Of a stretch of DNA of 64,000 bases, positions 1 to 28,498 are shown piece by piece. Origin of the DNA: Candidatus Bathyarchaeia archaeon (lineage in GTDB: Bacteria > Patescibacteriota > Microgenomatia > PFEM01 > JAFGMK01); contig DATKWK010000017.1 in NCBI GenBank assembly GCA_035529595.1, positions 29,384-93,383 of the forward strand, in the 5' to 3' direction. The position numbers and the translations under genes are program-made. The notes beneath the pieces are model-generated. The model ran no database searches and was not told the origin of the DNA. It was given only the letters and a program-made list of their open reading frames with translations. Every line of letters begins with the position of its first letter. Position 1 is the stretch's first letter.

Positions 1-101
1 TGAACTGTTCCCATAAAGGTCTATCACGTAAATAAGACACTTCCTTTATTGTGGGAGCTTGAGATAAATATCCCTGTAATTCTTCATAAATCGGCCTGAC
101 A
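1..101 (-). CDS. Partial CDS (N-terminus only; continues beyond window start), hypothetical protein
   Basis: Minus-strand ATG at 99..101 (plus-strand 'cat'). The frame stays open to position 1 and reads MKENVRPIYEELQGYLSQAP... No recognisable motif. Confidence 0.3.
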
Positions 102-108
102 TTTTCTT

Positions 109-2505
109 TCATCTACCCGCCCTTTCTTGAATAATTTTTTCGAGTGTCTTAAAGTCTCCTTCATTAACAAGGTGAAATCTCACTTTTCCATCATAAGCTC
201 TTTCTAAAATTGAATCCTCCTTCGTTAAGCCCTGCTTTAATGCCTTTTTCTCTTTTGGTGTTACTTCTTTAAGCTCTGCAAAGACCCAATTTTGGGCAAA
301 ATAGTACCAAACGGCTGTTTTACCGTTAACCTTAATATAGTGGTCTGAGCCAGCTCCCCCTTTGACTACTGCTACTCTGCCATCAACAAAGGTCTCTTTA
401 GTCCAATTAGGTATGCCTCTAACCATCTTTTTTACGAAAGGACTCTTAACCCTCTCGATTATTTCTTTATCCGTTTCAGCGGTACTCTTTTTGACTCCTG
501 TTGCACTAATCATTTTTAGAATAGCTGCTAACCATTCTAAAGCTGCCTCACCTTCTTTTTTAATAAAGGGTGCAATCTCACCTCTACCATGCTTGACGGC
601 ATTGCGGTACTCTTTTAGACTCAGAAATCTTTTTTCCACTTCATATTTTGACCTGAAGATTGATTGAAAAGTGTCCCAGTTCAAAAGAATAATCTTGGAA
701 TAATCCATAATGTCGCAGAAATCTAGCCAATCACGGGGAGAAAGGTCAGTTATTACTTTGGGGGGGTTCTTTTTAAGGTGTTCGCCAACTCTATTTCTAA
801 CAACGCCAACAATATCGCTAGGGATTAATGTTTTCCAATAATTTACATCTTTAGCTATCAGCTTCACGCCAATCAAATCTCTTAGCTGGTTCTCGGTCTT
901 ATCAATTGCCCTGTTAACATCATCGACCACCACCTGACCAATTTTTGACCCTGTAGCAACCGTTATTTCCTCAAGCATTAAAGCGGCCCTGGAAGCCAAA
1001 AAAGAGGTGAAATCACCTTTTTTAATGGAATCGTCATAGCGAATCAAGTGAGTTTTAAGCGTGTCTTCAAAGTCTGGGTTTTCAGAAGCGTAGTCCTCGA
1101 AATATTTACTTGGCTTCTTGTTAGAAATTTCCTTGTTTAATTCGGCTGGTAAGAAGCAAAAATTAGGAAGTGAATGGACCATTACCATCGGGTAATGATT
1201 CTGAATAATGGATTTAGGAAAGATATGGTGTTTCTCTGAGCTGTTGAAATCGGAAAAATAGGCATCACGCAAGGGTAAAAGGGAGTTATTCTTGAAATGT
1301 CTGGGGTTCTTTTTGACAAGCAAACACAAAACACCATTCTTGACGGCTGATTTGCGAGTCATCCTAATTTTCATCAGGGATTCAATGTCTGGATTAAGAG
1401 GATATTTAATAGCTACCTCTTTTCTGTCAGCAATTTTATCCATCAATTTTCTATCCTCGGTCATTAAGGTTAAGGTTGAAGCGGCGTATCTTTCTGAAAA
1501 AGTGGTTTGCCAGAACCATTGTGACAGAAGCTCCACTTGTTTCTGGTCTAGGCTTCTTGCCTTGTTCTTATAAAACAAATAGGCAATCACAGCGATTAAA
1601 CTTCGGTAAGGAAGAAGAAGGGAGTTAACAACGCCAAAATTGCTACAAGCGTAATCTATTGCCAAGCCAAGCGACTCCAGGCAAGTTTTCCAGTAATTTT
1701 TAACATCTTCTACCCGAAGCTGAAGCTGAACAACCCGAGTACAAGAACCCTTAGCAATCAAGGAAAGAGCTTGGATATAAACTTCATTGTGGATTTCGCC
1801 AAACTCTTTGGTTTTGAGTTTCTCGTTTTCTTTTTTAACTGCGACTCTTAAATCAAACTCAGGTGTCCAAGTACTTGCTGAGATTAAATCAAAAAGGTTT
1901 AATTTCTGCCCACCTTGATTGATTCGTTCAAAAATATCACAAACTTCATCCAATTCTTTATCATGAACATCAATGGCAGAAAATGGATAGTTGTTAAATC
2001 GCTGGTAGCATTCATTGAACGCCTTCTTCCGCTCAACGGTTAACCCTTCGTAAACGTCAAACCTGTCATTAGAGAGCAAATCAGAAATAGAAACATATCT
2101 TTGATTATCAGGATTTCGGTCAACAAACACCTTTTCATCCAAATCAAAGCAAATCTTTTTATAATTCCGATTGTAAAGGGTCAATCCCTTGACAGTTACA
2201 TATAGAGAAGTGAGCCTCTGCTGTCCGTCTAAAATAAAAGTTATTTTTTCGTACTTATCAGGCTTGGGAAGATTAAGTTCGGCAATATCTCTGTAGAAGT
2301 CATAATATTTGCGAGGAGCGTCCCAAAAAAAGAAAGAGCCAATCGGATACTCAAGATAAATGCTTTCTAAAAGTTTCATCACTCTAGGCTTGTCCCAAAC
2401 GAACTCTCTTTGAAACTGGGGAATGCGAAGAACACCTTTTTCAATCTCACGAATAATATCCGCCAACTTATAATCACTTTTTATTTTTATCTTTTGTATT
2501 TCCAT
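109..2505 (-). CDS. GmrSD-like type IV restriction-type protein: DUF262 (ParB-like NTPase, DGQQR motif) plus DUF1524 (His-Me finger nuclease, HHIFPKS), with a C-terminal HEPN-like R-x4-H segment
   Basis: Translation carries the ILDGQQRLTSL hallmark of DUF262 in the N-terminal region. A mid-protein SEKHHIFPKSII matches the DUF1524 (D/E)HIxP motif. EYRNAVKHGRGE near residue ~620 matches the HEPN Rx4H signature. The ORF is 798 aa. Confidence 0.8.
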   Translation of the reverse strand: MEIQKIKIKSDYKLADIIREIEKGVLRIPQFQREFVWDKPRVMKLLESIYLEYPIGSFFFWDAPRKYYDFYRDIAELNLPKPDKYEKITFILDGQQRLTSLYVTVKGLTLYNRNYKKICFDLDEKVFVDRNPDNQRYVSISDLLSNDRFDVYEGLTVERKKAFNECYQRFNNYPFSAIDVHDKELDEVCDIFERINQGGQKLNLFDLISASTWTPEFDLRVAVKKENEKLKTKEFGEIHNEVYIQALSLIAKGSCTRVVQLQLRVEDVKNYWKTCLESLGLAIDYACSNFGVVNSLLLPYRSLIAVIAYLFYKNKARSLDQKQVELLSQWFWQTTFSERYAASTLTLMTEDRKLMDKIADRKEVAIKYPLNPDIESLMKIRMTRKSAVKNGVLCLLVKKNPRHFKNNSLLPLRDAYFSDFNSSEKHHIFPKSIIQNHYPMVMVHSLPNFCFLPAELNKEISNKKPSKYFEDYASENPDFEDTLKTHLIRYDDSIKKGDFTSFLASRAALMLEEITVATGSKIGQVVVDDVNRAIDKTENQLRDLIGVKLIAKDVNYWKTLIPSDIVGVVRNRVGEHLKKNPPKVITDLSPRDWLDFCDIMDYSKIILLNWDTFQSIFRSKYEVEKRFLSLKEYRNAVKHGRGEIAPFIKKEGEAALEWLAAILKMISATGVKKSTAETDKEIIERVKSPFVKKMVRGIPNWTKETFVDGRVAVVKGGAGSDHYIKVNGKTAVWYYFAQNWVFAELKEVTPKEKKALKQGLTKEDSILERAYDGKVRFHLVNEGDFKTLEKIIQERAGR

Positions 2506-2570: not shown

Positions 2571-5321
2571 TTAATCATTATCACTATTTCTCAATAAATA
2601 TCTTCTTTCTCTTTTAAGAAATGCTTCTTTTCCGCCCTCGAGGACATCACAAATGTGTTCTTTAATACCTTCTTCCTCAATCGCCCCACAGATGATGTTC
2701 TCAGTAACATCATCTTTATCATCATCTTTCAGAACAATCACCAATTCGGCATCGGCAAGAACTACAAGGTTTGGGTCACGAGTACAAATAATCATTTGTC
2801 TTGATTCTTTTTTATCCTTTATAGTAGGAATCAAGCGTTCAATTAAAAATTTCGTATCTATGTGGTCCTCTGGCTGGTCAATAATGAGAGGGCCTCTGCC
2901 TGAACTTAGGATTAACTCTAAAACTGTTCCGCACCTTTCACCAAAAGATAAAGACTCAAGGGGTTTATTTTTGTACTTAATTCTGTTAAGACCTTCAACA
3001 CAAAACTCTTGAAGTCTTAATGACATTTCATCCCTAAGACTGGCTGTTTCTTTTCTACAAAATATCCCATTAAAAAATTTCGACTGCTCGCCCTTGGGTA
3101 ATTTTTCATTCTTTAAACAATCCTTTAATGCCTTAAACAGTTTGTCTCGTGAAGAATACTTGGCAACCAATTGATTCTTAAAGTACTCCACTTGGAATTT
3201 CTCTAATCCTACAATTCTAACTTCTATCTGTTCCTTCCATGCATAATAAGCCTTCGAAAACTGCTCTATTACCCAATTAATCACTTTTTCCATGTCAATC
3301 TCGTAACTAGCACGAATTTCAGAAGAAGAAAACTTTTGATTAAAGGCGTCAACATTCTGCTGGTTAGATTTCTCCCATTTTTGAAAAAGTCTGTTCAACT
3401 TTTTACAACTTTCTTTGTGTTCACCCCTATTTCTTTTACATTGGGTAATTTGTCCCCCCACTTTTTGAAGACTAGAAATAAGTTTTGTCCGCCTTTTTTC
3501 TATCGACTTAACTTCAGCCTCTGAAATATCAATTCCTTGAGAAGCACAATATTGCCTGTAATTCTTTCCAGCTTTAACTAGGTCCTTAGACAATTTCTTG
3601 CACTCTTTAGAGTTAGTAATCTTTTTAAGAACCTGTATTATTTCTTCATCAGTCTTATCAAATCTATCAACTAAATCGGATAATAAATTTAACTTGCCTT
3701 TAAGGCTAGGAATTAATTCGGCAATGTCTTTAGTATCAACAACAAAATATTCTTTTAACTCACTCTTATAGACAGTTAACTTTCCAGACAACCAAGATAG
3801 GCTTTCTTTGAACGAATCAATTTTTTGCTTATTTTGCGAGAGTTCTCGAAAATTATTAAATAGTTTTATAAACTCTTTGGAGTTAAATTTTTTCAGTAAT
3901 AAATCAATCTCTTCTGCCTCCTTTTGAATATCATCTTTCTGTCTTGATAATTGGTAAATTCTCAGATAGTCCTGCCTTTTGTTCTTAATTTCTTTCCTTG
4001 TCTTTTCAATTTCCTCCCATAATTCTTTTAAATTAGCATCTTCAAATTTCTGATAAACTAATGATGAGACTTCATTTTTGTCTCTAGCAATTTTTTCTAC
4101 TTTCCCTTGCGACCAATAGTCAACAGAAATTGCCGTGGCCTTATTATTGGCTTCCTCAATGCCATCTACTTCCTCTTGCAAAGACTTTTTAATCTCATAA
4201 ACATCCTCTCCTGTCTTGACGCTCAATACCACGTTAATACCAGGACACTCTTGCTGAAGCGACTCAATAATCGAAGGCTCTTTGCCTCCAATAACCGTAG
4301 TGGTGTGTTTTCCGTAGACAAAAGAAATAAGTTCAACTAGGGTACTTTTTCCAACACCCCTGGGGCCAATGACTGCAGTTAAGTTAGGGTTAAAAGGAAC
4401 ATGCTCACTTAATTGGCTAAAACAGTATTTATTTTCGGCTTCACTATCCTGTTCGCTCAAAGAAAATTTTGAAATCCGAAAATGAACGTATTGAGGGCAA
4501 TTTTTTCCATACCAAACCCGTTTCTCTGGTTCATAAATAATCTGTTTTAAACCGCTAAAAGTAGGCCTCGCCTTAATCCAACAATATTTTCTTCCAATTT
4601 CGTCAAGAGAATGAGCGTCAGAAGTAACAACGCCCGCCTTTTGCCCGCCCGTTAGCCTTAATACGTCTTCGTGTTTTAAAGACTTTTCTTTTGTCTCAGC
4701 ACTGCTAATTTCGAAGAAATCAACTTCTTTATGAACATTGACCTTTAACTGAGAACCTTTGACTGAGTTTAATGAATCCAGTCCTTTGTGTTTATCATAA
4801 TGTAAATAAATTAAGCCCCCATTATTTTTAATAATTTTATACGCCTCTCGTAAATCAACATACGCATGTTCTAGCCCCTCTTTGAAATACTCGCCATCGG
4901 TCTTTCCTTCCTTTAGCCTCGACTTCCCAAGTTTTATTAGAGCACTTCTACTTATTCCTTCGCCTTTTTTCTCACAAAGAGGAAGTTGGTTTAAAACATT
5001 TTCCTTGATTTCACTGATGTCTATGTCTTCTGGAAACAAAGCCACTGCATGAATCGGAGAATCACCCTTATCTATTCGAAATTCAAATCCAGGCAATATA
5101 GTAATTTCCTCATCGACTGCAAGAATCCTAATTGCATCAACAAGCTCAACCGACCAATGGTCCGTAATAGCAGCTAATTGTATTTTTTCTTGTTTTATTT
5201 TCTCTACTATCTGCCTTGGGGTTATTGCTTTATTTTTATAGTCATAAGAGGCAGGAGTATGAATCTGTAAATCGCACTTTGTCCAAGTGGAACCAATCGT
5301 TCCAGGCTGAGAATCACTCAT
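2571..5321 (-). CDS. PHP-domain (polymerase/histidinol-phosphatase-like) plus ABC/SMC-like ATPase fusion protein; candidate single-gene antiphage system (PPL-like)
   Basis: N-terminus CDLQIHTPASYDY...ITDHWS resembles PHP metal-binding His motifs. Walker A is GPRGVGKST at about residue 320. A long coiled-coil middle is followed by an LSFGER signature-like segment and Walker B/D-loop LIIDQPEDHID near the C-terminus. 916 aa. Confidence 0.75.
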   Translation of the reverse strand: MSDSQPGTIGSTWTKCDLQIHTPASYDYKNKAITPRQIVEKIKQEKIQLAAITDHWSVELVDAIRILAVDEEITILPGFEFRIDKGDSPIHAVALFPEDIDISEIKENVLNQLPLCEKKGEGISRSALIKLGKSRLKEGKTDGEYFKEGLEHAYVDLREAYKIIKNNGGLIYLHYDKHKGLDSLNSVKGSQLKVNVHKEVDFFEISSAETKEKSLKHEDVLRLTGGQKAGVVTSDAHSLDEIGRKYCWIKARPTFSGLKQIIYEPEKRVWYGKNCPQYVHFRISKFSLSEQDSEAENKYCFSQLSEHVPFNPNLTAVIGPRGVGKSTLVELISFVYGKHTTTVIGGKEPSIIESLQQECPGINVVLSVKTGEDVYEIKKSLQEEVDGIEEANNKATAISVDYWSQGKVEKIARDKNEVSSLVYQKFEDANLKELWEEIEKTRKEIKNKRQDYLRIYQLSRQKDDIQKEAEEIDLLLKKFNSKEFIKLFNNFRELSQNKQKIDSFKESLSWLSGKLTVYKSELKEYFVVDTKDIAELIPSLKGKLNLLSDLVDRFDKTDEEIIQVLKKITNSKECKKLSKDLVKAGKNYRQYCASQGIDISEAEVKSIEKRRTKLISSLQKVGGQITQCKRNRGEHKESCKKLNRLFQKWEKSNQQNVDAFNQKFSSSEIRASYEIDMEKVINWVIEQFSKAYYAWKEQIEVRIVGLEKFQVEYFKNQLVAKYSSRDKLFKALKDCLKNEKLPKGEQSKFFNGIFCRKETASLRDEMSLRLQEFCVEGLNRIKYKNKPLESLSFGERCGTVLELILSSGRGPLIIDQPEDHIDTKFLIERLIPTIKDKKESRQMIICTRDPNLVVLADAELVIVLKDDDKDDVTENIICGAIEEEGIKEHICDVLEGGKEAFLKRERRYLLRNSDND

Positions 5322-6475
5322 GAAACTAATTCTCCTTTCATTGCCTTATTAAGCGTGCTTTCAAAAAGTTCATTTAGTAAAGTCTCTTTCATAAAAAGAC
5401 TACTAATGTAATCTAAAAGTTGTTCTGCTTTCACTATTATTTTTTTCTGTTTATCTAACAAAGGTAAGGTTATTTCAATCTCCTTTATCCTATTAGCGTT
5501 GAACTGGGGCTGCCCCGAACCAGTTACCAACTTCCTAGCCTGTTTCCAGTATTTTTCAGTTCTGGTAAACAACCAAATAAACAAGGGTATTGCTAAATCA
5601 GGATTAAATTTAACTCTTATCAGGAATGAAGCAAACACTGATGGTTTATCATAGTCGAATAATAAAAATTTTCCATAAGTTGCACCCGTACGAGCCACAA
5701 GCAAATCGTCATTGCTAAGAACATAGGATTTAGCTGTTCTCTCATTGACTTGCACAAATCTTTTATCATGGTTTCTTAGTTTCCCCGACTCATTAATATC
5801 GGTGATTCTTATTAATCTATAGTTACCTTTGTTCTTGCCTTCAGCTGTTAATCCATACTGAAATTCTGCAATATCACCAAACTTACTAAATTTTGCACTA
5901 TTATTTTGGACGAGCTGGCCAGTTATGAAAGAATCAAATAATTCTTCTGCCTTCTCAATTTCTTGCTGGTTTAGTTCTTGGAGTTTTCGAATCGCATCCA
6001 GTCGCTCAACAATTTTGTGTTGAATCTCGAGAGAAGGAAAAGAAATTTTAATCTTTTTTAGGGCCGTAGTGCTTAATTCTTTAAAAGTGGTTCCATAAGA
6101 TACCCTTTCTAGTCTTCTTTTATTCGCCAACAGCCAATAGGCAAGAAACCATGAGCCTAACTCCTTTTTGGGTGTAATTCCTTTTATGCCTTGGTTGTAG
6201 CCCGAAGCTGTTGAAGTAATCGCTACATTTCCAATTGTTGCTCTAGTCGATAAAAGAATACAATTCTTGTCGACTATTTTGGTATATTTTTTAGCTTCCT
6301 CGCTAATTTGTCTTTCACTGTCTTCTAAAACAGAAACTGTTCCTGAAGTTATTTCGGAAGGAGTAAACCATGGGACGTCGCCATTGAAATATTGAGGCTG
6401 ACTAGTTGGTGGAGTACCTCCGCCGTTGACCTCAACTAAATTGTCCAATTTTTTTGTTTGCCAATTATTTTTCAT
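5318..6475 (-). CDS. hsdS: Type I restriction-modification specificity subunit HsdS (two target-recognition domains)
   Basis: 385 aa with the N-terminal pattern KLDNLVEVNGGGTPPTSQPQYFNGDVPWFTPSEI typical of HsdS TRD1, and a second repeat-like half. It lies in an operon with hsdM/hsdR. The stop overlaps the next gene's start (5318..5321). Confidence 0.8.
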   Translation of the reverse strand: MKNNWQTKKLDNLVEVNGGGTPPTSQPQYFNGDVPWFTPSEITSGTVSVLEDSERQISEEAKKYTKIVDKNCILLSTRATIGNVAITSTASGYNQGIKGITPKKELGSWFLAYWLLANKRRLERVSYGTTFKELSTTALKKIKISFPSLEIQHKIVERLDAIRKLQELNQQEIEKAEELFDSFITGQLVQNNSAKFSKFGDIAEFQYGLTAEGKNKGNYRLIRITDINESGKLRNHDKRFVQVNERTAKSYVLSNDDLLVARTGATYGKFLLFDYDKPSVFASFLIRVKFNPDLAIPLFIWLFTRTEKYWKQARKLVTGSGQPQFNANRIKEIEITLPLLDKQKKIIVKAEQLLDYISSLFMKETLLNELFESTLNKAMKGELVS

Positions 6476-7176
6476 TTCAGTAATCTATATACCTCCGCTA
6501 ATAAAACATCTAAATCATTAGAGAAATCTATTTGGCTATGGCCTGGAAGTACCTCTTTTTTTCTTACTTGTGTATGCAAGAAACTGTCAGCAATCTTTCT
6601 AGAGGAATTTTCCAGGTGCTTCATTTGTTCCCTAAAGCTCTTTGTCCCTCGATAATTATTAGCAATTTCAGAAAAAGACCTAGTATTAAAGATTGGAGGA
6701 ATGTGGTCAAGAATAGACCGCACTACCATGGCCACAGAGTAATAACAATTATTCTCGTAGGCTGTATTCAGCTCCTCACAAAGTCTAATAAGCCTAATTA
6801 AGTCGAAAACATCACTTTTAACACTCTTTAACTCTTTTATCCTAGACTCACTCACATAGGATACGGTTCGTGTTTTGAGAACTTTTTTAGGTAGAACTAA
6901 AAAAGAGTGTAATTTCTTCTTTAAATCTCTCTTAACCGCTAAGGCATCAATTGACCGTCGAATAATATCAATTTTTTCTTCTTCGTTAAGCTCAGAATCT
7001 GCAACTGTCATCACCCAACTATAAGTCAATGCCGACCTTGCAGATGTTATTGCTTCGTTTGGATAATCTTTACACTTTAAATCAGTCAAAGAGTAAAAAA
7101 TACGATTTATCTCATTAATTGTGCTATCGTACTTTATGCCTTCACCAAATTGCGTAGCAAGAAATTTGTAATTCAT
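6472..7176 (-). CDS. Hypothetical helical protein with an R-x4-H (HEPN-like) motif, inserted inside the Type I R-M operon
   Basis: 234-aa ORF whose start overlaps the hsdS start region (6472..6475). It contains VVRSILDHIPP (R-x4-H). There is no TM segment and no other recognisable motif. Confidence 0.5.
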   Translation of the reverse strand: MNYKFLATQFGEGIKYDSTINEINRIFYSLTDLKCKDYPNEAITSARSALTYSWVMTVADSELNEEEKIDIIRRSIDALAVKRDLKKKLHSFLVLPKKVLKTRTVSYVSESRIKELKSVKSDVFDLIRLIRLCEELNTAYENNCYYSVAMVVRSILDHIPPIFNTRSFSEIANNYRGTKSFREQMKHLENSSRKIADSFLHTQVRKKEVLPGHSQIDFSNDLDVLLAEVYRLLK

Positions 7177-7185
7177 ATTAAGGCC

Positions 7186-7896
7186 TTATCTATCCTTTTT
7201 AATAAATTCAAGAAATTTTTCCCCAAATTCAGTCAAAGGTCCGAAAAATGTTCCACCATATCTACCATTTTTGACGGAAATTAAACCATAATTCCCCAGT
7301 CTTGCTAATTTGTCTTCTAAATCAATTTCATCTTCTCTTTTTTGGAGATAACCTGCCTCTTTAACATCTCTAATACTAATGCCCCTGCTTCCATCGACAT
7401 TAATCTTAGCTTCAGGATTCTCTTTTTTTTGTCTCTTAAGGGTGGCCCGAAGAATTCCGTCATATTTTTCATTAAGCCAAGCTAACCTATGTAGCTCATC
7501 AAAAGTAATCGAATTAATCGTCAGAATAATCTTGGAGTGATAATCAAAGGAGGGATAAATATCTTTATGAAGTTGGGAAATATAATTATAGTAGAGTCGT
7601 CTTTTTCTTCTGGATTCTTCCTGCAAAACATTCAGCAAAATTTTATGGAGAATGTCTTTAGCTTTATCGTCTCTTTGGATTAGCTCTAATAACTTTTTGG
7701 CTCCAACTTCATTTTTAACTTCCTTAATCCTGTCACCTCTCCATTTATCAACTAGAGACCAAATCCCTGATGCTGCTGCCGTACCAATGCCAACAAAGGG
7801 AGAAAATACAGAAATTACCGCCCCTGCAACAGGAAGACCTAATTCCTTAACAACATCCTTGGCTTTATCTTTTTTATTCTTGTTATTCTTGCTCAT
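7186..7896 (-). CDS. Hypothetical membrane protein with a Gly-zipper-like single TM segment near the N-terminus, inserted inside the Type I R-M operon
   Basis: 236 aa with a Lys-rich N-terminus followed by LGLPVAGAVISVFSPFVGIGTAAASGIWSLV (GxxxG-rich hydrophobic segment). Its stop overlaps the hsdM start (7893..7896). Confidence 0.5.
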   Translation of the reverse strand: MSKNNKNKKDKAKDVVKELGLPVAGAVISVFSPFVGIGTAAASGIWSLVDKWRGDRIKEVKNEVGAKKLLELIQRDDKAKDILHKILLNVLQEESRRKRRLYYNYISQLHKDIYPSFDYHSKIILTINSITFDELHRLAWLNEKYDGILRATLKRQKKENPEAKINVDGSRGISIRDVKEAGYLQKREDEIDLEDKLARLGNYGLISVKNGRYGGTFFGPLTEFGEKFLEFIKKDR

Positions 7897-9410
7897 CTGA
7901 TAAATCCCTTAACTTTCTTTAATTGTTGCTGAACCTTTTTATTAATTTCCTCAACCTCTTTGAATATCTCTTTTGGTTCTCGATATTCAGTCTCATCATC
8001 TTCAATGGGTTTGTAAGCTGAAGCTGAAAGAATGTAGTCATTTTCATCAATCTGTTTTCTGGTAGCGTACCAACTCCTGTCTGATTCGGGTTTGTCTTTC
8101 CATTTTTCAATTAAATCAGGCAAATCATTTTTATCTGGAGTTGGCCTCCTTTGAGTAGATAGTTGGAAACCGTCAAAACGCACTTCATAAAACCAAACTT
8201 TTTCCGTTTTCTTGCCGTCGTTATTGAAAAAAAGAACACTTGTTTTAACGCCTGAATAAGGCTGGAAAACACCGCCTGGCAAAGAAACTACAGCTACAAG
8301 GTTTCTTTTGTCCATTAGGTAACGCCTAATTTCTTTTGAAGCCCTATTTCTATTAAAAAGAATACCTTCGTTAACAATCACCCCAGCCCTACCACTTTTT
8401 CTTAAAGCATCAATCATTAAGCCTAAAAAGAGAGTGGTTGTATCGTTGGCCTGAACTGGGAGATATTTTCTGATTCTTTCTTTATTTACACTGCCTGCAA
8501 AAGGAGGATTAGTAACGACAACGTCAAATTCTCTGTCTTCCCATTCATCAGGACTGCCAGCAATAGAATCCCTTCTTAACACTTGCGATTTCTCAAGACC
8601 ATGCAAGATAAGATTCATAGTGGCGATTCTGACCATGGCCGCATCAACATCGAAACCATAAAAAGTACCAGTTTGTAAAAATTGCCATTGAGAAGGTGTT
8701 AACTTATCACCTGGTCCTTTTTTGACTTTTTGTCCACTGCCATTTCCTAGTTCTTCAATATTCTTCTTGTCAGAATTGTTTAGTTTTATCCATTCATAGA
8801 CTCCTAAAAGGAAGCCTGCAGTGCCACAGGCAGGGTCTAGCAATGTTTCACCAATCTGGGGGTTAACCAGCTGAACAACGGTTCTGATAATATGCCTTGG
8901 TGTTCTGAATTGGCCTGCTTTGCCTGAAGTAGCTATTTGGTTTAAAAGGTATTCATAAAGGTCACCCTTAACATCAGCATCTAGTTCAATAAAAGAAATC
9001 TCACGCAGCTTGTCAATCACATCTCTTAAAACAACTCCGTCTGGAATCTGAAATCGGGCTCCTGAAAAGAAACTTCTAACCGTTTCATCAGTGCCAGGCA
9101 AATTGGCCATAAAGGGGAAAACTTCATCTCGGACAAATTTATACATTTCGGTATTATCAGGAATATGAGTCCATTGGCTCCAACGGTACTTTTCATTCTC
9201 TTTATCAAAGATTGATTTATAGCCATTCTTACTGCCCATCAGCTTTGTTTCTTTCACTTTTTCGTTGTCCCATTCCTCAAGCATTTTTAGGAAAAAGAGA
9301 TACGATATTTGTTCAATGTAAGTAATGGGGTTTGTTAACCCTGCGGCCCAAAGTTTATTGCAAATTTGGTCGATGACAGATTTAAGTTCCTGTTTAGTTG
9401 TTCTACTCAT
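7893..9410 (-). CDS. hsdM: Type I restriction-modification N6-adenine DNA methyltransferase subunit HsdM
   Basis: 505 aa with the catalytic VVTNPPFAGS (NPPF) motif and the SAM-binding LLDPACGTAGFL motif. Its start/stop overlaps hsdR (9407..9410). Confidence 0.9.
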   Translation of the reverse strand: MSRTTKQELKSVIDQICNKLWAAGLTNPITYIEQISYLFFLKMLEEWDNEKVKETKLMGSKNGYKSIFDKENEKYRWSQWTHIPDNTEMYKFVRDEVFPFMANLPGTDETVRSFFSGARFQIPDGVVLRDVIDKLREISFIELDADVKGDLYEYLLNQIATSGKAGQFRTPRHIIRTVVQLVNPQIGETLLDPACGTAGFLLGVYEWIKLNNSDKKNIEELGNGSGQKVKKGPGDKLTPSQWQFLQTGTFYGFDVDAAMVRIATMNLILHGLEKSQVLRRDSIAGSPDEWEDREFDVVVTNPPFAGSVNKERIRKYLPVQANDTTTLFLGLMIDALRKSGRAGVIVNEGILFNRNRASKEIRRYLMDKRNLVAVVSLPGGVFQPYSGVKTSVLFFNNDGKKTEKVWFYEVRFDGFQLSTQRRPTPDKNDLPDLIEKWKDKPESDRSWYATRKQIDENDYILSASAYKPIEDDETEYREPKEIFKEVEEINKKVQQQLKKVKGFIR

Positions 9411-11629
9411 TGGAATACTCCTTGTTGCAAATCATCAACTACCTGCTTTAAGCCTTCATCTCCAAACACTTTTAAGGCGTACTGTAAACCGCCGTATTGA
9501 GAAATTGGTGGCCTATTGAAGTCAGCAATATCAGCCTTGCTCCCTGCAAGATATTGATTCTTCAGCATTCTTAAAACTCTGGCCTGCTCTGGAGCAAAAT
9601 TCTTTTGAATAATCCAAGCATCGAAGGCCTTGCTGACTCTTTCTTCTTTAGTTGGGAATTTGTGCATTCCAAGGGAAGATTTGATGAAATCTAATAAGTT
9701 GGCAGTTGGTTGGCCATAGGCATCTCTTAAATTGGCTTCATTGAAAAAGTATTCTGGGTGATTTAAAAGTTGGGCTAATTCTTGAAGTTCTTCATCTGTT
9801 ATCTCCTTGCCTTGTTTAACCTTGGCCACAATCTCATTTGAATCAACAAGAGTGCTCACTTCTTCAGCAAACTTATCTTTATACTCTCGAGCATCAACTT
9901 TTTCTCCTTCTGGCCCAAACTCAATAAATTTACGCTCCATCCATTCATCTGGAGCCTGTCCTTTGGGTACAGTTACAAACTCTCTTTTGGGCATCTTCAG
10001 TTCTTCTTCTTGTAGTAAATCTTCTTCCACTTTCTCCTCTTTTAGCTCCCTGGTAGCTGATTCCTTTTGTTCAAATGGGTCATAACCTTCATCGTTAAAA
10101 TATTTAGCATTACCAACGAAGTCATAAATCATAAAAGAAGTTTTACCGATTTCTGGGCAGAGTCGTGAACCCCTACCTCGCATTTGTTGGTAAAAAATTG
10201 GTGAGAGGGTTGGCCGACACATCATCAAATTTTCAATAGCTGGGTAGTCGAAACCTGTGTCTAACATGGCCACCGAAACCGCAATCACGGGCAAAGGTTC
10301 CTTTTTAAAACGTTTAATAGCTCTTTGTGGGTCGAAGGTGTCGGTGGTTATCATCTCAGCATACTTTCCCTTATATTCTGGATAAGCCTGGTTGAAGAAT
10401 CTGGTTAGTTGAGCGGCGTGTTTCTTGGTGACAGCAAATACAATTGTTTTCCTGGGATGGTCGCTTCCTTTCTTTTCTTCTTGCTCTTTGAATTCTTGGA
10501 CAAAGAGCATATTTCTGTCTTCAACTGTAATTACTCTTTCTAAATCTTGCGGCTGATAATCTTCGCCTTGCCATTTAATTCCTTCTAGAGAAATCTTCGA
10601 ACGGGCATGATAAACCTTGTAGCCAGCTAAATAGCCATCATTTATCGCTTGTCTAATGCCGTAAATAAAAGTGGGCTTACCTCGTCTGGTTGATGGGTTC
10701 CAACAGTCAAAAAATTTATAAGTGTTGCGGTCAATAAAATTGGCTGGAGTAGCGGTTAAACCAACATGAATAGCATCAAAATGAAGAAGAAGCGGACGAT
10801 ACATGCTGTAAATTGAACGATGACACTCATCAGTCACTACTAAATCAAAATAGCCACTAGTAAAAGAGTCAACTTGTGATTGAATCGTTGGTAAAGTACC
10901 AATCACTATCTGGCCTTCTTTGCTTCTTTTACCGCCGTATAAAACAATTGAGGGGTATTCAGAAAGATAATCATCAAAAGTTTCCTTGGCTTGGTTGGCA
11001 AGCTCGATTCGGTCGACTAGAAATAAAACTCGCTCAACAAGACCTGCCTGAAATAATCGCTTCATTTGCATGGCAATCACTAGCGTTTTCCCTGTCCCTG
11101 TAGCCATTTCTATTAACATCCGTCGTTTATTTTCTTCTATTCCTTTATCCATTGTTCTTAATGAATCTTTTTGGTAAGGCCTGACAGTGATTTCTTTGCC
11201 TCTAAAAAAGAATTTATCGGGAATGGGAATAGCGGAAAGCGGCTTGCGATATTTTCTTAAAGTGGAAATTCTTTCTAAATCATATCTGGAAAAAAAGGAG
11301 TCAACCAGACGAGCATCTGCCTGAGCGTAATCCCAAAAATAGGTGTCTTCGCCATTAGAAAGGAAAATAAAAGGAGCTTGAAGTTCCTTAGCATAATTCT
11401 CTGCCTGTTCTTTGGCAGAATACGGGTCCTTGTTGAATCTTTTTGTTTCTACGACCGCTAACGACCTTCCTCGAGCGTCCAAAAGAAGATAATCGGCCCT
11501 ACCGTCTTTAGTAGCTTCTTCGGTAGTAACCTGAGTTTTATCTTCAATATCCCAGCCTGCCTCTTTAAGCAAGCGGTCAACAATGATTCTGGAATCCGTC
11601 TCTTTCGAGGCAGATTTAGCATTAGCCAT
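9407..11629 (-). CDS. hsdR: Type I restriction enzyme R subunit HsdR (N-terminal PD-(D/E)xK nuclease plus SF2 helicase/translocase)
   Basis: The N-terminus ADYLLLDARGRSLAVVETKR is a PD-D/ExK-like segment. Helicase motif I is MATGTGKT and motif II is VVTDECHRS. 740 aa, which is on the short side for HsdR. Confidence 0.85.
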   Translation of the reverse strand: MANAKSASKETDSRIIVDRLLKEAGWDIEDKTQVTTEEATKDGRADYLLLDARGRSLAVVETKRFNKDPYSAKEQAENYAKELQAPFIFLSNGEDTYFWDYAQADARLVDSFFSRYDLERISTLRKYRKPLSAIPIPDKFFFRGKEITVRPYQKDSLRTMDKGIEENKRRMLIEMATGTGKTLVIAMQMKRLFQAGLVERVLFLVDRIELANQAKETFDDYLSEYPSIVLYGGKRSKEGQIVIGTLPTIQSQVDSFTSGYFDLVVTDECHRSIYSMYRPLLLHFDAIHVGLTATPANFIDRNTYKFFDCWNPSTRRGKPTFIYGIRQAINDGYLAGYKVYHARSKISLEGIKWQGEDYQPQDLERVITVEDRNMLFVQEFKEQEEKKGSDHPRKTIVFAVTKKHAAQLTRFFNQAYPEYKGKYAEMITTDTFDPQRAIKRFKKEPLPVIAVSVAMLDTGFDYPAIENLMMCRPTLSPIFYQQMRGRGSRLCPEIGKTSFMIYDFVGNAKYFNDEGYDPFEQKESATRELKEEKVEEDLLQEEELKMPKREFVTVPKGQAPDEWMERKFIEFGPEGEKVDAREYKDKFAEEVSTLVDSNEIVAKVKQGKEITDEELQELAQLLNHPEYFFNEANLRDAYGQPTANLLDFIKSSLGMHKFPTKEERVSKAFDAWIIQKNFAPEQARVLRMLKNQYLAGSKADIADFNRPPISQYGGLQYALKVFGDEGLKQVVDDLQQGVFQ

Positions 11630-11839: not shown

Positions 11840-12570
11840 GCTAATTGAACTTAATTATATCTTATTACTTACTGTTTTAGAAGTTGAAGATTCCAAAAGT
11901 ATAATTATTATTGTACTTTCATTTTGTACAAAAATATTACTCACCCTGCCTTAAATTTTATCTCAAAATTGATGCATTATGAGGTGAATTTTTCTAGTTG
12001 ACAGCCTCAATTCATTTTCTTAAAATTTAGTTAATCTTGAGTCTTGGTATTTGCCAAGGAGTAACAAGAAATTGTGAAGTTCAACTCAAATTAGGGTTGG
12101 ACTTTTTTTGTTTAAGCAGAAGTCGTAGTGCACCATTGTGTGAGAGGCTAAAGAAGCCAAGGTCTAGTTGTAGGTGAAGTTTAACCCCACTTCACTCTAC
12201 CAACGGGGCCTCACGGGGAGTCGGCAACAAATACGACGTTAAATAAAGGTGTGAGGATGGTTGGCTGTTGACGTGTGACGAAGTCCAAAGTGTGCACGGG
12301 AATGACAACAGAAAAATGTGTCGGGATAAAGAGTTACGCACTATGCTCTCCCACCTTCTAGCTCAATGGAGACTAGTTTGGAGGCGATAGTTGGCTTAAA
12401 CGCTCTGAGAGAAAACAGGTTAAAGCGTTGAAAACATTCTTATTTTCTGTTTCTATGCTCTAAATTCCAAAGTGTGCAGTAAGGGCAACTCTCGGAAGGC
12501 AGTAAACGCTACCGAAATTCAGAAGTAATCTCCAAGTCAATTAATTTGGCACTTTTATGCTCAAATTACT
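11840..12570. ncRNA. Candidate structured non-coding region of unknown class (GC-richer than flanks, no ORF of 60 aa or more, internal hairpins and a repeated 13-nt motif)
   Basis: A ~730-bp gap in a gene-dense genome. Local hairpins include GTGAAGT...ACTTCAC around 12175..12200 and GGGG/CCCC pairs. The motif TCCAAAGTGTGCA occurs twice (~12285 and ~12468). The strand is undetermined. Confidence 0.25.
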
Positions 12571-12792
12571 TTATCTATGAAACAAGTCTTCTACTTTAAC
12601 CTTAAATTTCCTAGATATTCTCATTAAGAGCTTTAAAGATGGGCTCTCTCGACCTTGTTCTATGAAGCCCATATAAACTCTGGAAATACCTAGCTGGTGA
12701 GCTAGTTCTTCTTGGGTTAAATTATTTTGCTTCCTTAACTTTTGCACCTTTTTCCCTAAGGTTCTTAGTGTTTCTTTACTTGTTTTAGGCAT
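12571..12792 (-). CDS. XRE-family helix-turn-helix transcriptional regulator (controller/C-protein-like)
   Basis: 73 aa with LRKQNNLTQEELAHQLGISRVYMGFIEQGRESPSLKLL, a classic XRE HTH. Confidence 0.7.
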   Translation of the reverse strand: MPKTSKETLRTLGKKVQKLRKQNNLTQEELAHQLGISRVYMGFIEQGRESPSLKLLMRISRKFKVKVEDLFHR

Positions 12793-12929
12793 ACATCCAT
12801 ATTGTTGTATGCCGTCGTTTTAAACTCCACTAAGTATAACTAAGCATTTGGCCTTGAAAAAGGCTTGATTTCTTCTCTTAGATATAGTATGATTTCCTAG
12901 AAGATTTAAAATAAAAGAGATAAAACGAA

Positions 12930-13577
12930 ATGAAAAAAATATTTGTAGTTTGCTTCTCTATAATCCTATTAATATTTGCCTCGCAACATTTCACTAAACC
13001 TGCCGAAGCCTTTTCGTTTAGATACTCACGAAACATATTTTTCCCCTATCGACAAGAAGTCCTTAAAATGATTAATAAGGCGATTGAGCCCATACAGGCT
13101 CTAATTGATAGTCTTACCAGTAGGACAGATGATTTAGAAGATAAAGTGGCAGATTTAGAAGAAAGGCTAAAAGGACTGGAAGAAATTGCCCACTGCCCAC
13201 CAGGGATGGTTCCTGAAATCCGTTTTGAGGGTGATTTAGGTCCTCTTAAATGCAGGCTCGTTGATAATCCTCAACCCACGATTGAACCACAACCAACTTC
13301 TAGTCCAGAAGCCTTTCAAGTAAGCTGTGGCGTTCCAGAAGGTTCTAGTAGCTCGAGCGAGTTTACCATTTCTGCCAACAAACCACTCAAATCCTGTCTG
13401 TACACTACCAGTCCGATAGATAACTCTGAGCCAGAAACATCAGTTAGCATAACTCCAAACGATAATATTTGTTCTTTCACAGAAAATAACTGCGACAGAC
13501 AAATATGGGTAGGAATGGAATCATTTGATAACGAAAACCAAGAATGTCTCTACGAAGCGGTTGCATGTAACCCCTAA
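12930..13577 (+). CDS. Secreted hypothetical protein (signal peptide, coiled coil, Cys-rich C-terminal domain)
   Basis: N-terminus MKKIFVVCFSIILLIFASQHFTKPAEA looks like a signal peptide. The heptad-like DDLEDKVADLEERLKGLEE and eight Cys follow. A purine-rich stretch lies upstream of the ATG. Confidence 0.5.
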   Translation: MKKIFVVCFSIILLIFASQHFTKPAEAFSFRYSRNIFFPYRQEVLKMINKAIEPIQALIDSLTSRTDDLEDKVADLEERLKGLEEIAHCPPGMVPEIRFEGDLGPLKCRLVDNPQPTIEPQPTSSPEAFQVSCGVPEGSSSSSEFTISANKPLKSCLYTTSPIDNSEPETSVSITPNDNICSFTENNCDRQIWVGMESFDNENQECLYEAVACNP

Positions 13578-14649: not shown

Positions 14650-14983
14650 GGCAAAATTACTATTGCACTTGAGGCTAAAATGTGTTATAAAACATTTAAT
14701 AAGACCTTCGGGTCGACAGAAATAAAAAGAAACAGAAATAAGAGGATAAAGCCATTCGGCGAGGCCTCTTTTTTTATTGGGAGAAAACTAATGAAAGACA
14801 TTGAAGCAAAGCTAAACCAGGCAGCCACCTTATTAGCAGAAGTGATGCTAAGCCAGTTGGGCTTTAATTTCATTCCAAAAGTTAGGATTGAACTTAGTTA
14901 TATTTTCCAGATAAAAATAATCTTGACTGGAAGCCCTTATGAAATTCCGTTTAATTACTACGAGAAACTTAGTTTTACCAGAA

Positions 14984-14989
14984 AGGAGG
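14984..14989 (+). promoter_or_regulatory. Shine-Dalgarno site (AGGAGG) for the serine recombinase gene
   Basis: A perfect AGGAGG sits 6 nt upstream of the ATG at 14996. This supports 14996 as the true start rather than the upstream ATG at 14939. Confidence 0.6.
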
Positions 14990-14995
14990 GATTTA

Positions 14996-16531
14996 ATGAA
15001 CCCATCTACACAGCCTATGCCATCTAAAAAATGCTTGATTTATACTCGTGTCTCGACCGATGAGCAAGTGCGGGAGGGCATGTCTCTTGACGTTCAAAAA
15101 AGAGTTTGTTCTAAATGGGCCAAAGATAATGGCTATCAGATAGTCGGTATTTATACAGACGAGGGCAAGAGTGCCACAACGACCAAGGGCAGACATGGCC
15201 TTGAAGATTTAATTATTCACTGCCAAAAAGAGCACATTGACATCGTACTTGTGCTGGACACGGACCGATTGGCCAGAAACCCATTTAGCCATTATTCAAT
15301 CAAGGAAGAACTAAGAAAGGTTCATACCGAAATTATATCTGTCAGCCAACCAATGATTGATAATTCTCCTGAAGGCAATCTGGTTGATGGCATTATGGCT
15401 AATGTCAACGCTTTCCAGAGCCAATTAACAGGCCGAAAGGTAAGAAAGAGTCTTGAGAAGAAGTGCCAGGACGGCTGGTGGCCAGGATGGGCAAAGTTAG
15501 GCTATTTGAATCACAATAAGGGAACAGCGGACAATCCAGAAAAAATAATCATTGTTGACCCAGAAAGAAGCCCGTTAATTACTTTATTTTTCAAACTTTA
15601 TTCGACAGGCAACTTCTCTATCGACAGTTTAGTTGATTTGATGTACGAAAAGGGCCTGAGGTCCAAAAATGGCAAGAAAGTATCCAGAAGCATTCTTTAT
15701 AATGTCCTCCATGACCCGTTTTATTTTGGCAAGATTGAATTCAAAAGTAGAACCTACCAAGGAAAACATCCTCACCTAACCACTTCTGCCATTTTTAAAA
15801 CTTGTCAAAGAATTTCTAGCCTGCATAATCAAAACGCCTGCCGAAGACGGAAATATCGCTGGTTGCTTAACGGCTTTGCTTATTGCTCGGTTTGCAGGAA
15901 AAGGATTTATGCTGAATGGCACAAGCCAAAGGTCAAGGCTTATTATCATTGTTCCAAGCGAAACGGTGATTGTCGGCAGCCCTATATTGAAATGAATCAT
16001 TTGGAGAAAAAGATAGAATTAGAGTTTAAGAAATTACAACTTTCTCAAGAATTCAGCCAAAGAATCGTTGACAAAGCCAAAGAATTAGTCAAAAAGTCAA
16101 GAGAAAATATTGAAGAAGATAAGCAGGCCCTAAGAAACGCCATCAACCAGCTTGAGATTAAAAGAAATCGGCTTGAAGACGAGCTACTTGACCGCACTAT
16201 CAGCAAAGAGGCCTTTAAACGCAAGCACACTGAGTTAGAAGGCCAGATTAAGAGCTTACAGGAACAAATCCATGATATTGAAACCAACCAGCGAATTGAT
16301 ATTGACGTTATTTCTCGGGTAATGGATATGGCCTCTAATATCTACGAGACCTACAAGAAGTCTAATTTCGATGCTAAGAGAATTTACTTGGGAATCTTCT
16401 TTGAAAAGTTTGAAATCAAAAATAAAAAGGTAGCGAAAGCAATTCCAACGCCACTCTTTGCAAGCCTAATTGAGCACGGCTATTGTAGAGTAACGCCTAA
16501 CTGGCTCCCCGGACTGGACTCGAACCAGTAA
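14996..16531 (+). CDS. Large serine recombinase/integrase (resolvase catalytic domain, recombinase domain and zinc-ribbon domain)
   Basis: N-terminal LIYTRVSTDEQ (catalytic Ser motif), a C-terminal Cys cluster (CSVCRKRIYAEWHK...YYHCSKRNGDC) and a long coiled coil. The last 30 nt overlap the tRNA-Asn 3' end. Confidence 0.85.
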   Translation: MNPSTQPMPSKKCLIYTRVSTDEQVREGMSLDVQKRVCSKWAKDNGYQIVGIYTDEGKSATTTKGRHGLEDLIIHCQKEHIDIVLVLDTDRLARNPFSHYSIKEELRKVHTEIISVSQPMIDNSPEGNLVDGIMANVNAFQSQLTGRKVRKSLEKKCQDGWWPGWAKLGYLNHNKGTADNPEKIIIVDPERSPLITLFFKLYSTGNFSIDSLVDLMYEKGLRSKNGKKVSRSILYNVLHDPFYFGKIEFKSRTYQGKHPHLTTSAIFKTCQRISSLHNQNACRRRKYRWLLNGFAYCSVCRKRIYAEWHKPKVKAYYHCSKRNGDCRQPYIEMNHLEKKIELEFKKLQLSQEFSQRIVDKAKELVKKSRENIEEDKQALRNAINQLEIKRNRLEDELLDRTISKEAFKRKHTELEGQIKSLQEQIHDIETNQRIDIDVISRVMDMASNIYETYKKSNFDAKRIYLGIFFEKFEIKNKKVAKAIPTPLFASLIEHGYCRVTPNWLPGLDSNQ

Positions 16532-16577
16532 CCCTTCGCTTAACAGGCGAATGCTCTGCCAATTGAGCTACCGGGGA
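16502..16577 (-). tRNA. tRNA-Asn (anticodon GTT)
   Basis: Cloverleaf read by hand: acceptor TCCCCGG/CCGGGGA, D-stem GCTC/GAGC, anticodon stem TTCGC/GCGAA with loop CTGTTAA, and T-arm ACTGG-TTCGAGT-CCAGT. CCA is encoded. The 3' end overlaps the recombinase ORF. Confidence 0.8.
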
Positions 16578-27186: not shown

Positions 27187-27276
27187 TTGGCGGTGGGTGT
27201 GGGATTCGAACCCACGATAGCCTTTCAGCCATACACGCTCTCCAAGCGTGCGCACTAGTCCACTATGCGAACCCAC
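27187..27276 (-). tRNA. tRNA-Ser (anticodon GGA), long variable arm
   Basis: Acceptor GGTGGGT/ACCCACC; anticodon stem CACGC/GCGTG with loop TTGGAGA; T-arm ...GGTTCGAATCC...; CCA encoded. 90 nt. Confidence 0.8.
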
Positions 27277-27296
27277 CTTTTCAATTTTTTATCAAT

Positions 27297-27818
27297 CTAA
27301 AACAAGCGAAGCCGTTTATTTCCTTCCTCCGATATCTTTTTTGCTTTTTCCAAAATTTCTTTCTCTGAGTCAAAGGTTAACTTAGCTTTTGCCCGGTCAA
27401 AAGTCAACCAAAGAACTTTTTCCACTTCGTTCGAATCAGGACCGGTTTTCGTATCCTTTACCCACCTCATTAAATAAAAAACAATTTCCTTGACTACTCT
27501 CTGTTTCTGATCGTTATAGAAAAAAATCGTAATTTTATCAATCTTTTCAAGAGCCTCTACTTCCACCCCACCTTCTTCTCCGGTCTCCCTGATCGCCGCC
27601 TGAAGGCTGGTTTCTCCCGGATCAATCCAGCCTTTCGGAAGCTGCCACCTTCCTTTTCGCCAAGGTTCAGTTTCGGTTGCTTTTGGCTGATAAACTAACC
27701 AGAGATATTGATTACTGTCATTTTTGTAGACAACACCGCCGGCTGAGTATTCACGTTTAGCTTTTTCCTTCTTCTGTCCTTCCAATTTCAAACCGGGTGT
27801 TATTTTTTTATTTTTCAT
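27297..27818 (-). CDS. Nudix hydrolase
   Basis: Nudix box GWIDPGETSLQAAIRETGEEGGV. Confidence 0.75.
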   Translation of the reverse strand: MKNKKITPGLKLEGQKKEKAKREYSAGGVVYKNDSNQYLWLVYQPKATETEPWRKGRWQLPKGWIDPGETSLQAAIRETGEEGGVEVEALEKIDKITIFFYNDQKQRVVKEIVFYLMRWVKDTKTGPDSNEVEKVLWLTFDRAKAKLTFDSEKEILEKAKKISEEGNKRLRLF

Positions 27819-27822
27819 TAAG

Positions 27823-27895
27823 TGCGCCTGGGAGGAATCGAACCTCTAGCCTTCTGCTCCGGAGGCAGACGCTCTTTCCATTGAGCTACAGGCGC
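27823..27895 (-). tRNA. tRNA-Arg (anticodon CCG)
   Basis: Acceptor GCGCCTG/CAGGCGC; anticodon stem TCTGC/GCAGA with loop CTCCGGA; T-loop TTCGATT. Confidence 0.8.
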
Positions 27896-27900
27896 GAGAA

Positions 27901-28476
27901 TTAAAGGATACGAACTCCAAATTGTTTGAGCTTCTCGGCCAGTAAACAGAGAGGCAAACCGATGACATTATAGTAATCCCCTTCGATCCTTTCAACGATC
28001 AATGCCCCCAAGCCTTGAATAGCAAAAGCACCGGCTTTTCCGATCGGCTCTCCGCTCTTAACATAATTATCGACTTCTGCTTCCGTCAGTTTACGAATAT
28101 AAACTTTTGTTTCCGCCAAATCAGAAACCGTTTTACCGCTTTCTGTATCAATAATGGTAAAGCCGGTAATTACCGACAAAGTTCTTCCCCCGATTTTTTC
28201 AAGCATTTTCTTTGCTTCCACCGCCGTATCCGGCTTGCCTAATAACTGTTTTCCTAAGATGATAAAAGTATCGGCACCAATGATTAATCCGGTTTTGTGA
28301 TTCTTGGCAACTGCTTTTGCTTTTCCCAGTGATAGTAATCTAGCAAGCTTCCGTGGACTAATATCTCTTATCATTTCCTCTTGGTAGTTACTGGCTTCTG
28401 TCTTAAACTTCAAACCAAGTTTTTTTAAAATTTCTTTTCGTCTGGGTGAGGCAGAAGCAAGGATAATAGGTTTCAT
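27901..28476 (-). CDS. maf: Maf-like nucleoside triphosphate pyrophosphatase
   Basis: N-terminal IILASASPRRKEIL and the overall Maf pattern. 191 aa. Confidence 0.85.
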   Translation of the reverse strand: MKPIILASASPRRKEILKKLGLKFKTEASNYQEEMIRDISPRKLARLLSLGKAKAVAKNHKTGLIIGADTFIILGKQLLGKPDTAVEAKKMLEKIGGRTLSVITGFTIIDTESGKTVSDLAETKVYIRKLTEAEVDNYVKSGEPIGKAGAFAIQGLGALIVERIEGDYYNVIGLPLCLLAEKLKQFGVRIL

Positions 28477-28498
28477 ATTTTAGACTGATGATATTATA

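Follow-up and report, generated by a model that had tools for sequence, protein, structure and literature searches.

A GmrSD/BrxU-like protein with a predicted Swt1-like HEPN domain and a swappable tail is encoded in a Type I restriction-modification operon

Here, we analyzed a 64,000-nucleotide (nt) stretch of DNA (contig DATKWK010000017.1 of assembly GCA_035529595.1, forward-strand positions 29,384 to 93,383), which we refer to as the window, and focused on a gene close to its left end. This gene encodes a protein of 798 amino acids (aa), hereafter GmrSD-HEPN; its open reading frame (ORF) begins with ATG and has GGAG ~10 nt upstream. The identical protein is present in NCBI and JGI records, under the product name "DUF262 domain-containing protein" in NCBI, and the stored Pfam annotation of GmrSD-HEPN proteins likewise lists DUF262 only. 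The gene and the domains of its product are as follows:

109..2505, minus strand: whole gene for the 798-aa GmrSD/BrxU-like protein with predicted HEPN domain and DUF1801/DUF5655-like tail; stop codon at 109..111 (ORF list and translation)
1876..2466, minus strand: DUF262/GmrSD_N ParB-like NTPase domain, residues 14-210 (Pfam PF03235, E 2.3e-31)
1321..1809, minus strand: alpha-helical linker, residues 233-395 (secondary structure in the AlphaFold2 (AF2) model; spanned by the Foldseek alignment with BrxU)
946..1320, minus strand: divergent DUF1524-like His-Me finger/HNH nuclease, residues 396-520 (conservation, BrxU alignment, weak Pfam match)
499..921, minus strand: predicted Swt1-like HEPN domain, residues 529-669 (Pfam and PADLOC matches of homologues, motif conservation, AF2)
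112..483, minus strand: alpha/beta domain with a YdhG/DUF1801/YjbR/DUF5655-like "double-wing" fold, residues 675-798 (Foldseek)

Residues 1-520 constitute a BrxU/HEC-05-like GmrSD enzyme composed of DUF262, a helical linker and a His-Me finger. PF03235 is the only Pfam match on the full-length protein, and the DGQQR motif of this domain (residues 93-97, nt 2215..2229) is near-invariant among 85 close homologues (42-88% identity), which we used as the close set for residue conservation. In PADLOC, this part of the protein matches PDC-M55C (E 2.5e-46) and the BrxU-like family HEC-05 (E 1e-45), and in the homologue of locus L005 the HEC-05 model is covered over positions 25-593 of 600. BrxU (7p9k) is the only significant PDB sequence match (E 2.6e-10), and a full-length AF2 model, built from an 85-sequence alignment and with a mean predicted local distance difference test (pLDDT) score of 85.7, aligns in Foldseek with the same structure over 618 columns that include both domains (E 5e-14). 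An alpha-helical linker of 200-400 residues has been described for the fused enzymes of the GmrSD family (PMC4619093). The nuclease segment, when isolated, gives a weak match to Pfam GmrSD_C (PF07510) that is below the cut-off (E 0.036, residues ~413-480). Nevertheless, the 85 homologues do not vary at H426, H427, P430, N448, E455 and N457 and hardly vary at E424, in line with the (D/E)H..P motif and downstream Asn residues of GmrSD-family nucleases; the two histidines and the proline are part of HHIFPKS (residues 426-432, nt 1210..1230; EKHHIFPKS with E424), while N448 and N457 are located in NFCFLPAELNKE. This conservation despite the weak PF07510 match indicates that the His-Me finger is under selection.

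An earlier interpretation made from the DNA letters, the sequence-only reading, had proposed that ~250 more residues follow the nuclease and that they include an HEPN-like segment. The extra C-terminal stretch is indeed there, but AF2 models it as two domains (residues 529-669 and 675-798) rather than as one HEPN segment. The two units are separated by a low-confidence linker (669-674), and the model of the C-terminal part has a pLDDT of 91.5. The first unit contains helices at 530-552 and 563-579, an insert of three short helices at 590-617, and two further helices at 620-638 and 646-669. R634-N635-x3-H639 marks the place where the penultimate helix comes to its C-terminal end and the next loop begins. 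In the description of the HEPN fold in PMC3710099, the motif lies where helix 3 ends, and extra helices can be found between helices 2 and 3; the position of the motif and of the insert in the AF2 model agrees with this description.

The motif itself, RNAVKH (nt 589..606; within EYRNAVKHGR, residues 632-641), is the sole R-x4-H in the protein; in the HEPN superfamily, the motif is R-x4-6-H, in most cases with a polar residue next to the R. Shuffling the 798-aa sequence yields R-x4-H in 49.5% of cases, or in 19% if only the last 250 residues are considered; for RN-x3-H, the figure is 3.3%. By itself, R-x4-H is a chance-level motif; we count it as real because it is conserved across homologues. 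The 85 close homologues all have R634 and H639, and nearly all have N635. A word-indexed search for homologues of the HEPN segment alone returned six fragments only, and an exhaustive profile search was required: run against 1.84 billion cluster representatives, a profile of this segment matched 1541 proteins at E <= 0.001. As a wide conservation set, we used the best 147 of these 1541 representatives of 50%-identity clusters, ~145 of which aligned. In this set, R634 is present in 143, N635 in 133 and H639 in 144 of the ~145 diverse representatives, and E538, R542, W610, F613 and W658 are nearly invariant as well. Moreover, the domain also exists by itself and as the N-terminal part of unrelated proteins, and is therefore an autonomous module.

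Scans of the corresponding homologue segments point to the HEPN superfamily. HEPN_Swt1 (PF18731) is the top Pfam family, matching 24 of 27 segments in one scan (best E 2.8e-6) and 19 of 25 in another (best E 9.4e-7), and HEPN_SAV2148 is the second. In PADLOC, all 27 segments match PDC-M34B, as does the HEPN segment of GmrSD-HEPN itself (E 2e-10), and the minor recurring matches are mostly to HEPN-bearing models (CARF_HEPN in 6, RTasHEPN in 5, PD-T4-5 in 2 and Csx1 in 1). The sequence-only reading had looked to hidden Markov model searches for support of the HEPN call; in Pfam, such support came from the homologue segments and not from the query segment.

Several observations weigh against an HEPN domain with RNase activity. 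The query segment alone is without a match to any HEPN model in Pfam, even with the threshold relaxed to E <= 10, and the assignment is one made through its homologues. The Pfam HEPN_Swt1 matches of the homologues are mostly near or below the curated cut-off, and full-length relatives score 19.8-25.7 bits against a cut-off of 27.5. Searches of the query C-terminus against NCBIfam and, with phmmer, against PDB gave nothing useful, the profile of the HEPN segment gave only spurious helical matches among PDB sequences, and the helical domain of the C-terminal model had no convincing HEPN match in PDB or BFVD when searched with Foldseek. Finally, within the limited collection of literature searched, we found no report of activity for the fused form. 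On balance, we accept the HEPN identity at the level of the clade, on the grounds of sequence conservation and model layout rather than of a direct structural superposition. Overall, DGQQR, HHIFPKS and EYRNAVKHGR all lie in the ORF translation where the sequence-only reading had placed them, and its domain calls were borne out by the Pfam match for DUF262, by the BrxU alignment for the His-Me finger and by an HEPN domain with an intact R-x4-H. The segment is not modeled as part of the DUF1524 fold and R-x4-H is kept in homologues, so that the refuting outcome named in the sequence-only reading did not occur.

For the tail, Foldseek identified YdhG/DUF1801 (9t2w, 2oc6) and YjbR (2fki) structures in PDB with probabilities of 0.99-1.0 and template modeling (TM) scores, normalized to the target, of 0.56-0.58, the T4 MotA double-wing DNA-binding domain (5jlt) with a probability of 0.87, and a DUF5655 protein in BFVD with a probability of 1.0. 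Folds of this type comprise ~110-125 residues. Pfam support is weak, with DUF1801 detected in 3 of 25 homologues (best E 0.02). Close homologues with 60-72% identity across residues 1-660 have bona fide DUF5655, DUF4268 or an unassigned module in this position instead, or end directly after the HEPN domain; DUF4268 and DUF4357 were noted earlier on GmrSD proteins by Machnicka et al. 2015 (PMC4619093). A swappable tail beside conserved catalytic domains suggests a role in specificity or reading, and we consider the tail a probable nucleic acid-binding or reader module. In four homologues (P0031, P0034, P0107 and P0110), the tail is replaced by a module of ~150 aa with the pattern ICPA.PEGF...WHAIRI...KYLAMYEVAPISAIRW.GK, and in P0071 by a different small module rich in beta structure; Pfam gives no match for either. 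These replacement modules could be further reader domains.

The sequence-only reading considered the combination of a DNA nuclease and a putative RNase an unusual architecture. This view does not hold. For Swt1-like HEPN domains, Table 1 of Anantharaman et al. 2013 (PMC3710099) lists the fusion "ParB (DUF262) with HNH (DUF2081) (VNG7073), active" and, in addition, a fusion to "ParB (Saro_3948)". Among the representatives of at least 600 aa with this HEPN subtype, 30 of 36 have the order DUF262-linker-HNH-HEPN, and some of the long representatives add EVE, Mrr_N, DUF5655 or DUF4357 domains. The best plasmid matches of GmrSD-HEPN are Halobacterium salinarum genes on pNRC100, pNRC200 and PHS1 (E 2e-72, query residues 18-663), the product of which contains NKHHIFP and ends with FRNALAHHREI...IEW. 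That VNG7073 is the old locus tag of this Halobacterium gene could not be confirmed; the RefSeq tag is now VNG_RS10880. The DUF262-HNH-HEPN fusion is real and widespread, and has been described computationally since 2013. The haloarchaeal homologue is split (5669..7425 of locus L007 on pNRC200; 4953..7508 of locus L008 on PHS1). On PHS1, the DUF262 ORF and the HNH-HEPN ORF are parted by a short insertion with a 204-nt ORF (WP_000124630.1), and on pNRC200 the HNH-HEPN ORF has the WP_000124630.1 ORF upstream of it, with a further copy nearby. The haloarchaeal gene is probably inactivated.

In the window, the gmrSD-HEPN gene is preceded by genes of a Type I restriction-modification (R-M) system and is followed by a short ORF at the window edge:

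9407..11629, minus strand: HsdR (Pfam, PADLOC, NCBIfam)
7893..9410, minus strand: HsdM (Pfam, PADLOC, NCBIfam)
7186..7896, minus strand: unannotated 236-aa protein (no match in Pfam, PADLOC or NCBIfam)
6472..7176, minus strand: unannotated 234-aa protein between hsdM and hsdS (no match in Pfam)
5318..6475, minus strand: HsdS (Pfam, PADLOC, NCBIfam)
2571..5321, minus strand: TrlF-family PHP+AAA ATPase, 916 aa (NCBIfam TrlF, E 1.3e-132; a weaker match to Ppl in PADLOC, E 4.9e-50)
1..112, minus strand, running past the window edge (12394..12945 of locus L001): 183-aa ORF with an ATGA overlap with the GmrSD-HEPN stop codon (no match in PADLOC)

The genes from hsdR to gmrSD-HEPN, including the 2571..11629 cluster, are all on the same strand and abut or overlap, and no terminator-like site was found between the TrlF gene and gmrSD-HEPN. 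As far as the window extends, gmrSD-HEPN is the final complete gene of a Type I R-M operon in which the TrlF ATPase is also encoded. The ATGA overlap suggests that the 183-aa ORF is translationally coupled to it; beyond this ORF, the source contig continues with genes for a dCMP-deaminase-like protein and a DUF3795 protein. The TrlF protein, with its PHP domain and SMC/AAA ATPase, represents a further defense gene embedded in the same operon. The 236-aa protein has a Gly/Ala-rich hydrophobic N-terminal segment (LGLPVAGAVISVFSPFVGIGTAAASGIW).

The C-terminal ~130 aa of the 234-aa protein form an unannotated module present in more than 400 proteins with variable N-termini, and those of them named by source carry labels of Patescibacteria-type candidate phyla. 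In 120 homologues, R153 is invariant, D157 and H158 are present in 119 (R-x3-D-H), and an SSRKI.D..LH block is kept in at least 90%. A search of PDB gave a non-significant match to "Dandelion-hepn" (9wx2, E 0.18). A relationship to the HEPN domain of GmrSD-HEPN was rejected (hhalign probability 0.2%). The 234-aa protein may be a second, undescribed HEPN-like effector within the Type I operon.

Three further features of the window bear on the origin of this cluster:

14939..16531, plus strand: large serine recombinase (Resolvase, Recombinase and Zn ribbon), the 3' end of which overlaps tRNA-Asn
16502..16577, minus strand: tRNA-Asn
32386..32774, minus strand: transfer-messenger RNA (tmRNA) gene

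The GC content is 0.35-0.39 to the left of the serine recombinase and mostly 0.42-0.50 to the right, apart from a stretch at 22-28 kb with values of 0.37-0.38. The recombinase gene bounds the R-M/TrlF/GmrSD-HEPN cluster, which is probably located on a mobile island integrated at tRNA-Asn. On the source contig, a second serine recombinase is found ~3 kb past the left end of the window. Homologues of GmrSD-HEPN are labeled Patescibacteria, whereas NCBI labels the identical proteins "Candidatus Bathyarchaeia archaeon". We rejected an archaeal origin because the window encodes a tmRNA and, therefore, derives from a bacterium; the tmRNA and the Patescibacteria homologues, set against the NCBI label, indicate that the metagenome-assembled genome is probably mis-binned. 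In addition, four tRNA-Ser genes and two tRNA-Arg genes are clustered at 27188..31611 of the window.

In five of seven loci with GmrSD-HEPN homologues, the gene is part of a Type I R-M operon or neighbors one; in one of the other two, the neighbor is a Type ISP enzyme, and in the second an HNH-helicase. L011 and L012 are without a Type I system, as is the neighborhood of the Halobacterium plasmid copy. The HsdR proteins are of the EcoEI_R_C type in L001 and L009 and of the T1RH-like_C type in L003, L005 and L010. With these differing HsdR subtypes, the association looks like embedding in defense islands (cf. the preprint by Payne et al.) rather than a fixed complex. In three of the seven loci, a gene for a Cas4-like PD-(D/E)XK protein lies directly beside the gmrSD-HEPN gene, with overlapping reading frames in two cases:

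12484..13239 of L005: Cas4-like gene (Pfam PDDEXK_1)
7236..7994 of L009: Cas4-like gene (Pfam PDDEXK_1)
10403..11110 of L012: Cas4-like gene (Pfam PDDEXK_1)

The encoded proteins are 235-252 aa long and match Cas4 in PADLOC with E-values of 1e-9 to 1e-12. A gene of this type is absent from the window locus, and the Cas4-like protein may be an optional partner.

Based on these findings, we favor that GmrSD-HEPN is a Type IV restriction-type defense enzyme of the GmrSD family (BrxU/HEC-05-like) with two C-terminal modules, in which the HEPN domain would serve as an RNase second arm; we assign this reading a rough probability of 0.7. By analogy to BrxU, GmrSD and SspE (PMC10952713), the protein would form an NTP-regulated dimer in which DUF262, probably aided by the swappable tail, would sense modified or otherwise foreign DNA, and the His-Me finger would next cut the sensed DNA. 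NTP-stimulated cleavage of modified DNA (e.g. hmC/glc-hmC) is a hallmark of the GmrSD family. GmrSD/BrxU function has been described to depend on dimer-monomer transitions (PMC10952713). Going by the conservation of the HEPN residues and by PMC3710099, the two HEPN domains of the dimer would come together in a composite metal-independent RNase site. As a second effector arm, this site would cleave RNA of the phage (transcripts) or of the host (tRNA/mRNA); HEPN cleavage needs no metal and yields 2',3'-cyclic phosphate ends. RNA cleavage may complement a modification-blocked Type I enzyme encoded upstream. In other words, we infer from the sequence a dual action as DNA and RNA nuclease.

Three other explanations have to be weighed against this model. 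The HEPN domain may be present but non-catalytic and function, as proposed for the inactive HEPN domain of eukaryotic Swt1, as a dimerization, regulatory or nucleic acid-sensing module that gates the His-Me DNase. Some HEPN domains, including that of Swt1 itself, have been inferred to bind rather than to cleave (PMC3710099), and an added dimer interface is plausible because GmrSD/BrxU enzymes use dimer-monomer transitions (PMC10952713). However, inactive HEPN domains characteristically lose the motif, which here is retained at 143, 133 and 144 (R, N and H) of ~145 representatives that are mutually <50% identical, and the fusion class is scored "active" in PMC3710099. We therefore find a non-catalytic HEPN domain unlikely. 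A motif that arises in about half of all shuffles would fit a protein without any HEPN domain, in which residues 529-669 are a clade-specific helical extension of GmrSD and R-x4-H is there by chance; the lack of a significant HEPN match for the query, and of any HEPN match in Foldseek and in PDB profile searches, is what such a protein would show. Against this stand the conservation of R-x4-H over ~145 divergent representatives, the consistent matches of the homologues to HEPN_Swt1 and to four other independent HEPN-bearing models, and the autonomous occurrence of the domain, standalone or at the N-terminus of unrelated proteins. Taken together, these make the absence of an HEPN domain very improbable.

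The pairing of an NTPase with an HEPN domain resembles PrrC/EcoprrI. GmrSD-HEPN could, accordingly, be a PrrC-like guard, in which the HEPN RNase would be held latent on the Type I R-M complex and be freed by a phage anti-restriction factor to cause abortive infection, while the GmrSD DNase would be secondary. The Type I R-M operons in or beside five of the seven loci speak for such a guard, as does the almost exclusive embedding of PrrC in Type I R-M systems (Payne et al. preprint). By contrast, two of the seven loci (L011 and L012) and the Halobacterium plasmid copy are without a nearby Type I system, the HsdR partners belong to different subfamilies, which argues against a specific protein-protein dependence, and the DNase residues are conserved as strongly as the HEPN residues in the 85 homologues. 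As a consequence, we regard a PrrC-like guard as improbable. A more elaborate version of the favored model, with DNA cleavage and an RNase second arm, would be a two-tier effector. Here, the trigger would be set by the tail reader together with the DUF262 NTPase, modified phage DNA would be cleaved by the His-Me finger, and the paired HEPN domains would stay silent unless DNA cleavage fails or the co-encoded Type I R-M system is neutralized, in which case they would cleave host or phage RNA as an abortive-infection fail-safe. We put this version forward tentatively and consider it rather unlikely; if true, this would be the first case of a Type IV restriction enzyme equipped with its own RNase backup.

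GmrSD/BrxU enzymes are viewed purely as modification-dependent DNases, while the conservation described here suggests that a large sub-clade carries an apparently active HEPN domain hidden by annotation. If this domain is an RNase, DNA restriction and RNA cleavage would be coupled in one polypeptide, and the interchangeable tails would represent a natural set of specificity modules. The concept as such is not new: the fusion was predicted in 2013, and PD-T4-2 is known as a two-component system of DUF262 and HEPN.

The relationship of GmrSD-HEPN to named systems follows from its modules. Its N-terminal part and its HEPN domain match protein C of PDC-M55 and protein B of PDC-M34, respectively, two candidates defined by their embedding in R-M/BREX systems (Payne et al. 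bioRxiv 2024). These are predicted multi-gene candidates, whereas here both modules are fused and no other genes of the cassettes are apparent; the supplementary tables give family numbers only and leave the cassettes unexplained. The PrrC/RloC anticodon nucleases also combine an NTPase module with a C-terminal HEPN RNase and are found within Type I R-M loci, but PrrC has an ABC-type ATPase instead of DUF262, no DNase domain and an HEPN domain of another family, and no sequence similarity was detected between GmrSD-HEPN and PrrC/RloC. PD-T4-2, which according to the account in PMC10952713 was identified by Vassallo et al. 2022 as an antiphage system of two components, is closer in that it combines a DUF262 component and an HEPN component, and PD-T4-2_A matches the N-terminus of GmrSD-HEPN in PADLOC (E 1e-6). 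However, PD-T4-2 is listed as having no DUF1524 nuclease, and its HEPN domain belongs to PF18735 rather than being Swt1-like. BrxU/HEC-05 shares DUF262 with DGQQR, the helical linker and the His-Me finger, and is also embedded in or beside other defense systems; by contrast, BrxU ends after DUF1524 (~580 aa) without an HEPN domain or a DUF5655-like tail, and identity is ~16%. The closest counterpart is the fusion class of Anantharaman et al., exemplified by VNG7073 of a Halobacterium NRC-1 plasmid, which has the same domain order, the same HEPN subfamily and an intact R-N-x3-H. Compared to the Halobacterium copy, the protein described here adds the DUF1801/DUF5655-like tail, which the haloarchaeal copy does not have, and its gene is located in a tmRNA-bearing bacterium, inside a Type I R-M operon.

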